Source of the DNA: Patescibacteria group bacterium
GTDB lineage: Bacteria; Patescibacteriota; Minisyncoccia; Phycocordibacterales; SBAW01
DNA: 55,132 bases
Assembly: GCA_028871115.1 (NCBI GenBank)
Contig: JAGWOD010000004.1
Location: forward strand, 1 to 55,132
Direction of reading: 5' to 3'
The position numbers and the translations under genes are program-made. The first letter of the stretch is position 1. Each line of letters opens with the position of its first letter. Below are positions 6,096 to 55,132 of the stretch, piece by piece. The notes under the pieces are model-generated. The model was not told the DNA's origin. It did no database searches and saw nothing but the letters and a program-made list of their open reading frames with translations.

Positions 6096-7160
6096 CTACT
6101 TTCCTTCCCCCTGGGAAACGGGCTTGCGCGTGCGACGATGCGATTCGATGTCGTTGACGAATTCGCGCAGGGCGGCGGCGAGCGGAACCGCGAGGAGCAC
6201 CCCTACAAATCCTGCAAGTTTGCCACCGACGATGAGAGCAAGAATAACGAGAAGCGGTGGAAGGCCGACCACCTTCTTCACGACGAGCGGATAAATGAGA
6301 TTCGATTCAAATTGCTGCACAATGATGAAAAGACCGAGTACCAGGAGCGCGAGCCCCGCTCCGCCGGTTGCAAACGCAATCGCGACTGAGGGAATAGCAG
6401 CGAGAATTTGGCCAAAGACCGGGATGAGCTCGAAGATGGCAGCGAGCACCGCAAGCAAAAGCGCATAGGGAACCTGGAGAATTGTGAGCCCGAGAAAGAG
6501 GAGAACTCCGATGATAAGCCCAAGCATCAGTTGTCCTTGCATCCACTTCCCTATCTTGTCTTTAGCCCGCTTCCAGAGTCCGAGAACGTAGCCGTGCTGC
6601 TCGACCGGGGTGATGATACGCAAAAAATCCTCTACCCCGGTCTCCTGTACGCAGAAGTAGAAAGAAAAGACAACTACTAGAATGAAGGAGACAATACCTC
6701 CGAAGAACGCCGAGAGTGCAGTAAGAAGACCCCCTGTCGATCCCCCGAGCGCCGAACTGAAGTTTCGAATAAGGTCAGCTGAAGAAAGGAGGCCTGCGAT
6801 ATCAGAGATGGGAAGTATGGAGGAAGAATCTGCGGAGAAATCAATAGAGTGGAGTGTATTGGGAAGTTGTGCGAGAAAGCTTGCCGCATCGTTGAGGACC
6901 GGCGGTAGGAAGAAGAGCACGATGCCAATAAAGATCGCGGCCACGATGAGGTATATGCAAATGATGGAGAGAATACGCGGCAGCCCCTGGCGCTCAAGCG
7001 CATGGATGCCCGGTTCCATCGCAGAGGCAATAACCACCGCGGTGAGAAGTATGAGAACGATATCGCGCAGGTACCACAGAAGCGCTGCCCCGATTATGAA
7101 AAGAATCGCGGTAAGAATAGTACCCGGGGTGATGCGCACCGTGATATCGCGCTGCGGCAT
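6096..7160 (-). CDS. AI-2E family transporter (PerM/UPF0118-like permease)
   Basis: 354 aa and multi-pass, with a characteristic C-terminal half (FELIPVFGQILAAIP...IIVQQFESNLIYPLVV). Confidence 0.85.
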   Translation of the reverse strand: MPQRDITVRITPGTILTAILFIIGAALLWYLRDIVLILLTAVVIASAMEPGIHALERQGLPRILSIICIYLIVAAIFIGIVLFFLPPVLNDAASFLAQLPNTLHSIDFSADSSSILPISDIAGLLSSADLIRNFSSALGGSTGGLLTALSAFFGGIVSFILVVVFSFYFCVQETGVEDFLRIITPVEQHGYVLGLWKRAKDKIGKWMQGQLMLGLIIGVLLFLGLTILQVPYALLLAVLAAIFELIPVFGQILAAIPSVAIAFATGGAGLALLVLGLFIIVQQFESNLIYPLVVKKVVGLPPLLVILALIVGGKLAGFVGVLLAVPLAAALREFVNDIESHRRTRKPVSQGEGK

Positions 7161-42584: not shown

Positions 42585-42821
42585 TTACTTAGAAAGAAGC
42601 TTGGCGAGCTGGGATTTCTTGCGAGCCGCCGTGTTCTTCTTTATGACACCGCCCTTGAGTGCCTTGTCTATCGCCTGGTAGGCCTTAGCCAGATTCTCGC
42701 TCGAAATAGTGGTACGAATATCTTTTGCGGCTGCGCGCATTGCCCGAACACGTCTATCATTAAAAACCTTCCGGCGCATGGATTGGCGGAGTGCTTTCTT
42801 GGCCGATTTCGTAATTGCCAT
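42585..42821 (-). CDS. rpsT: 30S ribosomal protein S20
   Basis: Start at Met13 of the track ORF: MAITKSAKKALRQSMRRKVFNDRRVRAMRAAAK... Confidence 0.9.
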   Translation of the reverse strand: MAITKSAKKALRQSMRRKVFNDRRVRAMRAAAKDIRTTISSENLAKAYQAIDKALKGGVIKKNTAARKKSQLAKLLSK

Positions 42822-42883
42822 GCGCGTCACTCTACTATAAGAGAGAAGGCTCGGCAACTCTGGGTGTGGGGTATGATGAGGGC

Positions 42884-43486
42884 ATGATAGGTAAGCTCAA
42901 CGGGGTATTTGCAGGAGACGCCGGGGGCGGGACCATTCTCATCGATGTTGCGGGAGTAGGCTACGAGGTACGCGTCCCGGCGAGCGATCTTGCCGATACA
43001 TCCCTGCGCGAAGGAGACCCTGTTGAACTTTTCATTTACACCGCAGTCCGGGAAGATTCCATAGATCTCTACGGATTTCACACCAGTGAGGAACTTTCCT
43101 TCTTCAAGATGCTCCTTGGCGTTTCGGGAATTGGTCCGAAAACCGCGCTCGGCATACTTTCAATCGCTGACGTACCTTCACTTGAACGAGCGATTGGAGC
43201 AGGTGATGCAAGTATTCTCACCAAAGTATATGGAGTCGGAAAAAAGAGCGCAGAGCGTATCGTCGTGGAACTCAAAGACAAATTAGGCAAGAAAGTAATA
43301 CGCTCGGGAGCGCGGGTAGGCTCTCCAAGCGACATGGAAGTCCTCGAGGCCCTTGAATCGCTTGGATATTCAATCCCAGAGGGCCGCGCCGCCCTGCAGC
43401 ATGTCCCCGAGGAAGCCTCGGGAGTTCGCGAGAGGCTCGCAGCGGCACTTAAATATCTGGGCGCCCCGTCTAAAGCGCACTCATGA
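42884..43486 (+). CDS. ruvA: Holliday junction branch-migration complex subunit RuvA
   Basis: Start at Met24 of the track ORF: MIGKLNGVF...ILIDVAGVGYEVRVP...LYGF...E...FKMLLGVSGIGPKTALGILS. Confidence 0.9.
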   Translation: MIGKLNGVFAGDAGGGTILIDVAGVGYEVRVPASDLADTSLREGDPVELFIYTAVREDSIDLYGFHTSEELSFFKMLLGVSGIGPKTALGILSIADVPSLERAIGAGDASILTKVYGVGKKSAERIVVELKDKLGKKVIRSGARVGSPSDMEVLEALESLGYSIPEGRAALQHVPEEASGVRERLAAALKYLGAPSKAHS

Positions 43487-52211: not shown

Positions 52212-52715
52212 ATGACCCTTGCTACCCACGCGGTTGCAGGGGCGGCCGTGGCATCCTTCACGCCCGCCCATCCCCTTATCGGATTTTGTGCAGGATTTGT
52301 GAGTCACTTCGCGCTCGACGCTGTGCCGCATTGGAACTACCGCGTACGCTCGGCATCGCTTGACCCTACCCGTGGAGGCCCTATTACCTTCAATGGAGAT
52401 CTTTTGATAGACGCTATAGCGATTTTCATTGATGGGGGTATTGGGATCGCACTCGTAGTTGTGCTCTTCTTCAATCCTCTCGCGCTGCCTGCGATTCTTG
52501 CGGGGGCACTCGGGGGCCTGCTGCCTGATTTCCTTCATTTTGTTCACACCCGGCTGCCGAACATGGGTCTTAAAGCGTTTACGCGCCTTCATATACGAAT
52601 TCAGCAGGAGATCTTCCACGAGCGGCCCCTCATAGGGCTTCTCACGCAAGCGGGGTGGATAGCAGGCCTTGTGATTGCTTTTTTCATCATCAAAGTAGGT
52701 CTTTTACACCCATAG
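52212..52715 (+). CDS. Small multi-pass membrane protein, YdjM/DUF457-like metal-dependent hydrolase fold (tentative)
   Basis: 167 aa. THAVAGAAVA...SHFALDAVPHWNY His/Asp pattern within TM segments. Confidence 0.5.
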   Translation: MTLATHAVAGAAVASFTPAHPLIGFCAGFVSHFALDAVPHWNYRVRSASLDPTRGGPITFNGDLLIDAIAIFIDGGIGIALVVVLFFNPLALPAILAGALGGLLPDFLHFVHTRLPNMGLKAFTRLHIRIQQEIFHERPLIGLLTQAGWIAGLVIAFFIIKVGLLHP

Positions 52716-52724
52716 GCGAAAACG

Positions 52725-52985
52725 AAAAAAACGCGGGGTCAATGTTGCACCGCGTTGCAGGGAGCGTAGAGTGATGCGAGAATCAAGAAAGCGCACCTCT
52801 AAGCAATATCCATTTTCGAATATCGAAAAAGTGGTCACCCACTCTGAGGATAGCCCCCGCACTCCTGCGTAGTGCAGGCGCCGAGGCGTCCTTAAATAGG
52901 CACTCAAACCCTCTCAGGTTGCATTGCTTAGAGATGCGCTGTCTCGAGCACATCAGTTCTGACGAAATGAAAATCGCTCCATTGC
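52725..52985 (-). ncRNA. Candidate structured non-coding RNA of unknown class, antisense to both flanking genes
   Basis: Nested long-range helices: 52923-52939 pairs with 52791-52807 (17 bp), 52949-52955 with 52772-52778 (7 bp) and 52975-52980 with 52761-52766 (6 bp). Their single non-Watson-Crick positions are G-U only on the minus strand. There is a GUGA-capped hairpin (52830-52843), an AU hairpin (52813-52829) and a minus-strand terminator (stem 52730-52756 plus 7 U). Boundaries are approximate. Confidence 0.4.
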
Positions 52986-53026
52986 GGGAGCAAACACTTT
53001 TGATACCTTAGCATATTATAATTTTT

Positions 53027-54076
53027 ATGTCAAGAACCCCCGCAAAGGCCCCTAAAGATCCTGATCTTGAGGTAACTCCGCAAGAGCCTCAGCGCGTGGA
53101 AATTTTTCTTGATTCAACCTTGCGCCCCTCCTCCTGGAAGGAGTACGTGGGTCAAGAGAGTATCAAACAAAACCTCCATATCCTCATCACTGCTGCCAAA
53201 GAGCGCAGCACGCCTCCGGAACATATTCTCTTCTACGGTCCACCGGGGCTCGGAAAGACCACTCTCGCTCACCTTATCGCCCGCGAACTGGGCGGTGTGC
53301 TGCGCTCGACCTCGGGGCCTGCCATAGAGCGGGTAGGCGATCTTGCGGCACTCCTCTCCAACCTTTCCCCAGGCGACATACTTTTCATTGATGAAATACA
53401 CCGGCTCTCGCGCACCATTGAAGAGGTCCTCTACCCCGCCATGGAGTCGGGCGTACTCAACATCATCATCGGCAAGGGCCCTTCGGCACGCACCCTTGAA
53501 CTTCCCCTACCTCCCTTTACGCTCATTGCTGCGACGACTCGAGTGGCGAGTCTTTCGGCTCCTTTGCGCTCTCGCTTTTCAGGAGGTTCCTTCCGCTTGG
53601 AGTTTTATAGTGAAGAGGATATTGCTCAAATTATACGCCGTTCAGCAAAAATATTAGGAATTAAGATCGATGAGGAAGGTGTGGATGAAATTGCACGCCG
53701 CTCGCGCGCAACACCACGTACCGCGAACTATCTTCTGAAGCGGGTGCGTGATTATGCACAGCTCAAAAAAATTCCACTGAGCAAAAAAACAGTTGAGGAT
53801 GCGCTGGGGCTTCTTGAGGTGGATACCCTTGGACTTACACCGCTTGACCGAAAATTCCTCACCGTTCTTATTGAGCGCTTTGGTGGAGGCCCCGCGGGCG
53901 TCGGAGCTTTGGGTGCAGCTTTAAGCGAAGAGCCGAGCACGCTTTCGGAGGTGCATGAACCTTATCTCTTGCAGCTCGGCCTCATCGAGAGAACACCCCG
54001 CGGGCGTACAGCAACATCTAAAGCGTATCAGCACCTCAAGATTCAAGGGGCAGAGCCTCAAGGAACCCTTGTCTAG
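53027..54076 (+). CDS. ruvB: Holliday junction DNA helicase RuvB
   Basis: [13 protein letters not shown], Walker [16 protein letters not shown], Walker [11 protein letters not shown], sensor TLIAATTR and a C-terminal winged helix. Confidence 0.97.
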
Positions 54077-54103: not shown

Positions 54104-55132
54104 TTAGATTTCTTTATACTCCGGCACCAACCCCACCACCACACTCTGCGTAGGCACGGAGTCATCGAGCCCCGTACAGGAGAGCGTGAAGGTCGTGGTT
54201 TGAGTAATTTCTGGCGTTGTGACCTCTCCCTCAGCGCTTTCTGCATTGGAGAGCGGGTGGTTGTAGCCTGGAGCGGTGATTGAACAAGAAGAAGCTTGTA
54301 CATTCTCCACACTCCAGCTCAGTTGCGTAGTGGCATTGGGAGCGACCCTTGTGGGAGAAGCGACGAGGGAGATGGTAGGGGTGACATAGGTGACAGTGAC
54401 GAGCGCTTGGGCGGAGTTCTGTTCTCCGTTGCCGCTGCAGGTAACGGTGTAGATGGTGTTTTGGGAGAGACTCACTTGGGCGGAGCCACTGATGCCTCCA
54501 TTAGTGTTGAAGTTGGTACCCGCACAAGAGGTTGCGCCCGTCGATTCCCACGTGAGGGTACTCTCCCCTGCTCCCTGCAGAGTGGAGGGATTGGCGGAGA
54601 TGGCTGCGGCAGGAAGGACACTAAACTGTGTCTCTCCAGAGCAGTTGTTGTTCTCATTGGTCTCAGCGATTACTCCATCGGGATACGGAGGGAGATCAGC
54701 ACACAGGCGTACCCAGTAGGTGCCTGAGGGAATGTTGGTCCAATTGCCGGAGACGGGAGTCGTGGAGTTCCCACCAACCGCAGGAGCTGCAGTGGTGACG
54801 TCATCGTAGGAGTCGCTGTCATTGAAATTGGGGCCGGTGAGGTCTACCTGGAAGAGAGAGGTGAAGCCCTGAGTGGTGCTTTCGTTGCCTTGATTGACTA
54901 CGGTGCCGGAGAAGGGGGCAGACCCTCCTGCAATTAGGTTGCTGCCGACGGATGGTGCATCCGCCGTCAGATCAGGCCCCCCAGAGATGGTGAAGGGGGT
55001 ACCTGCGGAGCAGTTGTTGTTTTCATTGGATTCTGGGATGACGCCGTTGGGGTAGGGGGGAAGATCGGCACAGAGACGCACATAGAAGGTGCCCTCCTGC
55101 GTGGGTATCCATGTGGTGGAGATGGGTACAGA
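54104..55132 (-). CDS. Large surface protein with CARDB-like and Ig-like repeat domains (5' end outside the window)
   Basis: WVRLCADLPPYPDGVIAETNENNNCS recurs (also RLCADLPPYPNGVIPESNENNNCS), which is the D-x-x-N-x-V-x-E-x-N-E-x-N-N ending of CARDB domains. The frame stays open to nt 55132. Confidence 0.75.
   Translation of the reverse strand, partial: SVPISTTWIPTQEGTFYVRLCADLPPYPNGVIPESNENNNCSAGTPFTISGGPDLTADAPSVGSNLIAGGSAPFSGTVVNQGNESTTQGFTSLFQVDLTGPNFNDSDSYDDVTTAAPAVGGNSTTPVSGNWTNIPSGTYWVRLCADLPPYPDGVIAETNENNNCSGETQFSVLPAAAISANPSTLQGAGESTLTWESTGATSCAGTNFNTNGGISGSAQVSLSQNTIYTVTCSGNGEQNSAQALVTVTYVTPTISLVASPTRVAPNATTQLSWSVENVQASSCSITAPGYNHPLSNAESAEGEVTTPEITQTTTFTLSCTGLDDSVPTQSVVVGLVPEYKEI

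Follow-up and report, generated by a model that had tools for sequence, protein, structure and literature searches.

A probable new family of structured RNA encoded divergently from ruvB in Parcubacteria

Several orphan classes of noncoding RNA, among them the raiA motif, OLE, ROOL, GOLLD and HEARO of the Weinberg and Breaker surveys, have been recognised through covariation only; they are lineage-restricted and have an elaborate conserved structure, and their function is not known. Cis-antisense RNAs at promoter pairs that overlap, whether divergent or face-to-face, such as IstR/tisB at an SOS locus and the 'excludon' arrangements of Listeria, are small or lack structure, and their action is confined to pairing or interference. 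The candidate phyla radiation accounts for much of bacterial diversity; its members are for the most part uncultured, many functions found universally elsewhere have been lost from them, and to our knowledge their lineage-specific structured RNAs are almost unexplored. Here we analysed a stretch of 55,132 nt from a Patescibacteria group bacterium (contig JAGWOD010000004.1; hereafter the window) and describe a structured RNA encoded on its minus strand, in the 311-nt spacer (52716-53026) between an open reading frame (ORF) ending at 52715 and the start of ruvB at 53027; all coordinates of the RNA are given on the minus strand of the window. The initial annotation of this spacer had proposed a novel structured minus-strand RNA with its own promoter and terminator, and this proposal is borne out by covariation among 96 homologues, by a promoter conserved in 93 of 94 loci and by the absence of any match in Rfam. 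We are all but certain that a real structured RNA is encoded on the minus strand, and it very probably represents a new RNA family with the window copy as its founding member.

Both strands of 52716-53004 were folded as RNA and compared with 200 shuffles. The minus strand reached -113.6 kcal/mol (z = -5.2), a value attained by none of the 200 shuffles, and the plus strand reached -98.8 kcal/mol (z = -3.8). RNAalifold applied to 18 sequences gave 42 consensus pairs, 31 of them with compensatory changes, and this alignment was used to build a covariance model (R1) that, at a family cut-off of E < 1e-10, yielded 98 matches among the related genome and metagenome loci collected, with one copy per locus and including four relatives outside the training set (L009, L011, L020 and L021). 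A second model (R2) was built from all 98 family sequences. Covariation was then scored over the 42 pairs in 96 distinct homologues with five measures and 500 shuffles. In this alignment (A3), which was fitted to the model so that its pairing percentages are somewhat inflated, 93.3% of cells were paired as opposed to 38-51% when the partners were slid by 1-3 columns; 35 of the 42 pairs had changed on both sides, and 0 of the 500 shuffles reached any of the five measures. The comparison of homologous spacers that had been put forward as a check finds the paired segments of the core kept by compensatory change. The top-ranking column pairs by mutual information coincided with the annotated helices, with 8-214, 63-138 and 31-49 suggested as extra pairs, and the same approach gave no convincing long-range pairs beyond the helices that would point to a pseudoknot or tertiary contact.

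The functional strand is the one opposite ruvB, since the alignment holds 521 G-U cells versus 71 A-C cells, since canonical pairing drops from 93.3% on the RNA strand to 82.0% on the ruvB strand, and since the covariance model scores the window at 112.6 bits (E = 1e-22) on the minus strand versus 43.3 bits on the plus strand. In close relatives every wobble within the arms of the closing helix is likewise a G-U pair in the orientation opposite ruvB, in line with the strand argument that had been drawn from two G-U wobbles in the window.

Covariation shows a fold in which a closing helix (P1) leads into a compact four-way junction with the hairpins P2 and P5 and with an irregular arm, P3-P4, that carries an invariant AGGAC...UAUCCU motif (Table 1). 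P1 spans about 26 bp in the fold, with compensatory changes in 21 of its 25 modelled pairs and an inner segment of 13 bp that is nearly invariant. The 17-bp pairing noticed at the outset (52923-52939 with 52791-52807) is part of this helix, and its odd position is U52934-G52796 when the minus strand is read, A-C when the plus strand is read. A second pairing, which prolongs P1 outward by 7 bp including one U-G (52955-52949 with 52778-52772), is present in the minimum free energy fold but is specific to the window, as the 18-nt flanks in 95 relatives pair no better than shuffled flanks (-3.5 versus -3.4 kcal/mol). A third, between 52975-52980 and 52761-52766, appears doubtful: its 5' half is engaged in the hairpin 52993-52974, and it has no conserved equivalent in relatives. 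P2 was recognised by inspection of hairpins in the sub-alignment and by one covarying pair in columns 31-49 (CG 41, GC 14, AU 12, GU 11), and RNAalifold predicted no consensus pairs in its sub-alignment block; among the three blocks treated in this way, P5, the second of the two local hairpins proposed in the initial annotation, was the sole one with a consensus fold. Within the family, 4 of 4 pairs of P3 had changed on both sides and 93% of its cells were paired. The other local hairpin, AGUGG-GUGA-CCACU with its GNRA loop (52843-52830), can indeed be formed by the window sequence, but relatives have nothing comparable, and it is in competition with P3. In P4, the invariant basal helix is followed by an invariant C/UA internal loop, a covarying 5-bp GCCUC/GGGGC helix and an invariant G52881-C52859 pair, beyond which lies a variable capping hairpin (52878-52864). 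Overall, conservation is concentrated in the inner part of P1, in P4 and at the base of P5, and the tips of the hairpins are free to vary, with UUCG and GNRA loops frequent among them. Processing of P1 by RNase III was considered and set aside, as was an internal loop of the UAA/GAN type beside P4.

Judged from its sequence signals, 52998-52725 on the minus strand forms an independent transcription unit with an RNA of about 270 nt. The promoter is near the consensus and of a strong sigma-70 type, TTGACA-17-TGnTAnnnT, that fires away from ruvB; the TTGACA box, 17-nt spacer and TAAGGT hexamer named in the initial annotation are all present, and the corresponding family signal, CTTGACAT-N-TATGCTAnnCT, precedes the core in 93 of 94 loci, with a promoter score of 12-13 out of 14 in 74 of 93 relatives. 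Transcription is predicted to start near 52998, which is more probable than the 5' end at 52985 given earlier. The proposed stem with a run of seven U is present as well: 44 of 98 relatives have a hairpin plus T-run at most 130 nt past the core, often at 20-60 nt, canonical terminators stand at the same place in many of them, and that of L001 is clearly homologous to the terminator of the window. No conserved small ORF was found in the RNA, the longest sense ORF having a median length of 27 aa (minimum 9 aa).

Two further observations concern this transcription unit. In relatives lacking an obvious terminator, a recurrent CAATTGACA motif is found 40-90 nt downstream of the core, often after an A-run (for example in L004, L005, L010, L015, L021, L099, L103, L119, L124 and L138), and this motif may serve a following promoter as its -35 region or be a conserved site of another kind. 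When DNA sequencing runs were searched for natural variants, near-identical strains showed no informative substitutions in the RNA; the strain in run X11, from a soil metagenome, has one T fewer at 53022, in the T-run between TATAAT and the ATG of ruvB, which leaves the RNA promoter with a spacer of 16 nt in place of 17, and its RNA core is without differences.

Table 1. Features of the RNA gene and of ruvB, in window coordinates (minus-strand features are written 5' to 3').
Feature	Position	Strand	Remarks
-35 box TTGACA	53033-53028	-	Read directly; reverse complement lies within the first codons of ruvB
Extended -10 TGcTAAGGT	53013-53005	-	TAAGGT 53010-53005, TG 53013-53012; 17 nt after the -35 box; family consensus TATGCTAnnCT
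5' leader, about 50 nt	52998-52949	-	Variable in the family; hairpin 52993-52974; 5' half of the P1 extension (52955-52949)
Structured core, 167 nt	52948-52782	-	Covariance-model match
P1, 5' strand	52948-52922	-	Pairs with 52808-52782 (25 pairs); inner 13 nt AUCUCUAAGCAAU (52935-52923) nearly invariant in the family
P1, 3' strand	52808-52782	-	Includes AUUGCUUAGAGGU (52807-52795)
P2 hairpin AACCU-GAGA-GGGUU	52920-52907	-	Sequence variable, often with a UUCG or GNRA cap; absent in L001
P3 GAGUG/CACUU	52905-52901 with 52833-52829	-	Window register derived by hand, replacing a poor covariance-model alignment
P4 arm	52892-52847	-	Invariant AGGA/UCCU helix, 52892-52889 with 52850-52847; most conserved part of the family
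P5 hairpin UUUUCGA-UAU-UCGAAAA	52829-52813	-	Family consensus ACUUUU...AAAG
3' tail	52781-52725	-	Window-specific P1 extension, 3' half (52778-52772); intrinsic terminator
Terminator	stem 52754-52748 with 52738-52732; U7 52731-52725	-	Faces the 3' end of the upstream gene
ruvB	53027..54076	+	Pfam RuvB_N, AAA_lid_4, RuvB_C; divergent from the RNA gene; start codon inside the RNA promoter

The RNA does not correspond to any described family that we could find. Rfam 15 (4227 families), searched over the whole window at the gathering score and over 531 nt (52600-53130) as well as 14 relatives at E <= 10, gave no match to it; the hits obtained were tRNAs elsewhere and chance hits such as Pistol at 13.5 bits on the wrong strand, and we found no description of the RNA in the literature on RNAs of Patescibacteria and Parcubacteria. 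Model R1 detects exactly one copy in the window, with no second copy in the 55 kb, and a search of the same 55 kb for second copies or targets of the 13-mer arm returned only the two arms. A pattern scan of metagenome contigs revealed at least 120 further loci with the RNA, and a scan of viral contigs revealed no copy. In close relatives, whose RuvB is 64-77% identical, the 13-nt arms AUCUCUAAGCAAU and AUUGCUUAGAGAU flank about 105-120 nt, and the element lies just upstream of ruvB on the opposite strand; compensatory changes in the arms include AAGUAAU/UUACUU (L001), AAACAAU/AUUGUUU (L012 and L015) and UAGACAA/UUGUCUA (L014). Model R2 additionally gave weak matches of 16-29 bits in L041, L027, L028 and L024, all at the same position upstream of ruvB. 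P4 is the most deeply conserved element of the RNA, since its motif GGA-N-RNYUUGG...CUGNNNYUAUUCC is retained in the distant L041 and L027; the inner P1 helix has been rewritten compensatorily in L041, L027 and L028, the distant homologues using UUUGUAGACAGU/ACUGUCUGCAAA. By its RuvB, the organism of the window sits among bacteria of the Parcubacteria type, next to relatives labelled as Kaiserbacteria, Paceibacteria, Minisyncoccia and Parcubacteria, and the RNA family is confined to a clade of Parcubacteria (Paceibacteria/Minisyncoccia) within the candidate phyla radiation. One weak match of about 30 bits on both strands, at L002:6601-6697, is a 97-nt AT-rich palindromic hairpin that probably meets the long-helix part of the model only and is not a homologue.

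Evidence of expression comes from the relative L119, in which short RNA-seq contigs from three runs cover 6822-6993, nearly congruent with the model match at 6827-6997, at 93-99% identity; ruvB of the same locus is uncovered by these contigs. As the contigs are unstranded, they show the presence of a transcript and not its direction. Among RNA runs, none carrying the window's own sequence was found.

The genes of the RNA and of ruvB are interlocked, because the -35 box of the former overlaps the first codons of the latter. The two are divergent in 91 of the 91 loci that contain ruvB. In the window, the -35 box is the reverse complement of the first ruvB codons (ATGTCAAG; ATG TCA AG, 53027-53034), and in the window, L002 and L004 a single 8-mer, the reverse complement of CTTGACAT, is both the -35 box and the ruvB start codon with the codons that follow; an in-frame ATGTCAA that forms the ruvB start, with no stop between, was found in 58 of 91 loci, the window included (53027-53033). 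In addition, TGCTATAAT, an extended -10 element aimed at ruvB, is present as its reverse complement in the RNA leader of 42 of 94 relatives but not in the window copy; wherever this ruvB-directed TGnTAYAAT and the RNA promoter were both found (41 of 41 loci), the element is flanked by the RNA promoter on one side and the core on the other. In the loci with such an element (about 45%), the two promoters face each other at a distance of 30-55 bp and the 5' ends of the transcripts are complementary. In the subgroup of the window, transcripts of the ORF upstream could read through into ruvB.

Some relatives also carry repeats in the stretch that the RNA leader has in common with the ruvB 5' untranslated region (UTR). 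Three to four direct repeats, TTATCAACA / TATCCACA / TATACACA, with a spacing of about 11-12 nt and a resemblance to DnaA boxes (consensus TTATCCACA), lie on the RNA-sense strand just upstream of the core in L096:1372-1471 and L100:1789-1888, between the RNA promoter and a conserved ATTATAGCATTTG; they occur also in L112, L113, L120, L127, L142, L145 and L148, and the window copy is without them. DnaA or another regulator may bind them, or they may form a cluster associated with an origin; a role as origin of replication, which they suggested, was considered and set aside.

The explanation that we favour, and which we regard as fairly probable, is that of a stand-alone noncoding RNA that has a protein-binding core and whose synthesis is reciprocal with that of ruvB. 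The invariant helices and internal loops, together with free, tetraloop-capped tips, suggest an RNA that binds protein, either as the scaffold of a ribonucleoprotein (RNP) or as a protein-titrating RNA, and this pattern of conservation seems to fit such a function better than ligand sensing or base pairing. Here we speculate that the core would bind a protein or other macromolecule and act in trans, a proposition for which we see the balance as even. With the -35 box placed within the codons of ruvB, synthesis of every ruvB mRNA has to run head-on through the RNA promoter, and in the relatives with facing promoters the RNA and the ruvB transcript would share complementary 5' ends. Given the overlap of the -35 box with the start codon and the facing promoters, a single template could support the synthesis of only one of the two RNAs at a time, owing to occlusion of a promoter, to collision or to antisense pairing; that such reciprocity is functional we put forward tentatively, as a plausible proposal that falls short of being probable. 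A more specific partner can be imagined in the Holliday-junction machinery, with the RNA as a four-way-junction mimic or regulator that binds RuvA or RuvB and feeds back on the dosage of RuvB, or, more broadly, as the RNA subunit of an RNP specific to Parcubacteria; the observations that suggest it are the constant linkage to ruvB and the four-way architecture, and we consider it very improbable.

Several points weigh against the explanation we favour. The function in trans is read purely from the pattern of conservation. The constant linkage to ruvB may reflect plain conservation of gene order in small genomes, and the pilB-like gene on the other side of the RNA is likewise kept, in 82 of 98 loci. 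The -10 hexamer of the window, TAAGGT, has 3 of 6 matches and is weaker than the family consensus, and searches for a ruvB-directed promoter in the subgroup formed by the window, L001, L002, L004, L005 and L017 gave chance-level matches only. Besides being unstranded, the RNA-seq contigs are of low depth and come from relatives and not from the organism of the window, and the inflation of the pairing percentages has been mentioned above.

Much of the linkage evidence could also be accommodated by a device acting purely in cis, through antisense pairing or transcription interference at ruvB, in which the folded core merely stabilises the transcript. Such a device would account for the linkage in all 91 loci, for the -35 box inside the first codons of ruvB, for the 41-42 of 94 loci with facing promoters and, in that subgroup, for the complementarity of the leader to the ruvB 5' UTR. 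However, a stabiliser needs no invariant multi-helix core of 160 nt, kept even where RuvB is only 56-77% identical; the leader, which is the sole part antisense to the ruvB RNA, is the least conserved; and over half of the loci, the window among them, show no detectable ruvB-directed promoter, so that we find this alternative unlikely. A divergent 6S-type RNA, acting as the mimic of an open promoter by which RNA polymerase holoenzyme is sequestered, would agree with the size of the core (about 160 nt) and of the transcript (200-280 nt), with a single-copy gene under a strong housekeeping-type promoter, and with ends that pair in a helix of about 26 bp opposite an irregular arm of about 25 bp; 6S sequences are also known to diverge strongly. 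Against this stand the Rfam models of 6S, which gave nothing at E <= 10 in the 531-nt search or the 14 relatives, the folding of both central strands into the stable hairpins P2 and P5 with few unpaired nucleotides at the junction, and the sequence conservation of the closing helix, which 6S function does not need. The '6S-like rod' envisaged as one option in the initial annotation is therefore not favoured, its centre being closed by P2 and P5 and not an open bubble, and a 6S-type RNA seems to us improbable.

The remaining alternatives concern the strand and the nature of the molecule. That the element is a structured 5' leader or riboswitch of the ruvB mRNA on the plus strand might be suggested by its place directly upstream of ruvB, by a plus strand that folds better than its shuffles (z = -3.8) and by possible read-through of ruvB mRNA across the region in the subgroup of the window. 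Yet the 521 to 71 ratio of G-U to A-C cells, the fall of canonical pairing to 82%, the model scores (43 versus 113 bits) and the orientation of promoter and terminator all speak for the minus strand, and where a ruvB promoter is recognisable it lies downstream of the core in the ruvB sense and thus leaves the core outside the ruvB mRNA in that subgroup; we give a plus-strand leader practically no credence. An element acting as DNA, with the 13-bp inverted repeats as operator, recombination or origin-associated sites or as the remnant of a miniature mobile element, would be in line with the near invariance of these arms and with the DnaA-box-like repeats that adjoin the element in some relatives. 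It is, however, highly improbable, given that half of the sequences break the symmetry at pair 23/200 and keep a G-U (GU 48, GC 38, AU 10), that the 115 nt between the arms covary as helices too, and that each locus has a single copy, always at the same syntenic position, the 55 kb being without a second one and the viral contigs scanned without any.

As for the genes around the RNA, 82 of 98 loci have a gene for a pilB-like ATPase that converges on it. The window differs from the other loci only by an extra ORF of 167 aa (52212-52715, plus strand) between the pilB-like gene and the RNA; this hydrophobic ORF, labelled 'DUF457-like' at first, has no Pfam match at E <= 0.001, and the label is not upheld. 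It looks like a lineage-specific insertion, since no homologue was found in 200 related loci. Downstream, a 325-aa ORF at 54104-55081 (minus strand) converges on ruvB; it contains a CARDB domain and an internal duplication in which the peptide 'VRLCADLPPYP(N/D)GVI(P/A)E(S/T)NENNNCS' occurs twice, and probably encodes a surface protein. The ruvA gene (RuvA_N, HHH_5, RuvA_C) lies at 42815-43483 on the plus strand, about 10 kb from ruvB and beside a Mur ligase gene, an arrangement that differs from the ruvAB operon typical of many bacteria.

The RNA is conserved in at least 120 metagenome contigs and has a strong promoter and covariation support comparable to that of established RNA families, and its nearly invariant helices point to a specific macromolecular partner. 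A -35 box that doubles as the start codon of ruvB and the next two codons is a case of compact, overlapping genetic information, and this overlap predicts reciprocal expression of the RNA and of a core gene of recombination repair. Many orphan RNA motifs are already known, and the present finding overturns nothing.

Compared with known systems, the RNA has the general features of a stand-alone noncoding RNA gene: a promoter, a terminator, covariation, no conserved ORF and, in relatives, a transcript seen in unstranded contigs. Three well-known classes of structured RNA are not supported as candidates, in agreement with the initial annotation. For tmRNA, ARAGORN finds only 8 tRNAs in the window and there is no Rfam match; for RNase P RNA there is neither an Rfam match nor a pseudoknot signal, and the GGAAAGUCC-type P4 strand is absent from the sequence; for the RNA of the signal recognition particle (SRP) there is no Rfam match, and all hairpin tips vary, unlike helix 8 of SRP RNA with its conserved loops and GNAR tetraloop. 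The SRP itself is reportedly missing from Parcubacteria, in whose genomes neither ffh nor ffs was detected (PMC4508563). A riboswitch or 5' leader was rejected in view of the strand opposite ruvB and the RNA's own promoter and terminator, and the RNA is not the leader of a downstream gene either, because the next gene on its side is convergent. A mobile inverted-repeat element of the miniature inverted-repeat transposable element (MITE) kind was rejected in view of the single copy per locus at the same syntenic site.

Among described RNAs, 6S RNA (ssrS; RF00013) resembles the window RNA in being a single-copy stand-alone gene of about 160-280 nt with a strong promoter, and in its layout, with a long closing helix built from the 5' and 3' ends and a long irregular arm across from it. 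The window RNA differs in that it has no covariance-model match, in that its gene is locked to ruvB, in that it forms a closed four-way junction with two hairpins where 6S RNA has a large open bubble, and in that its closing helix is conserved in sequence. A further likeness is to Y RNA/YrlA, the partner of the Ro60 orthologue Rsr, whose ends also form a long helix with a sequence-conserved segment, which is protein-binding in Y RNA, and which likewise has a distal multi-branched module with variable hairpins; however, there is no Rfam match at E <= 10, no T-loop-like or tRNA-like motifs were seen in the window RNA, and its immediate neighbours are the pilB-like gene and ruvB and not rsr. With IstR/tisB and the 'excludon' arrangements it has in common a promoter that overlaps the start region of a DNA-repair gene and, in about 45% of relatives, complementary 5' ends that predict reciprocal expression. 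Unlike those antisense RNAs, it has no small toxin ORF and possesses a covarying core of 160 nt outside the overlap. The orphan classes introduced at the beginning share with it their recognition through covariation, their restriction to a lineage and their elaborate conserved structure. The window RNA is set apart from them by the lack of homology in Rfam 15, by a size smaller than that of OLE, ROOL and GOLLD, and by its occurrence in the candidate phyla radiation at a fixed genomic position.

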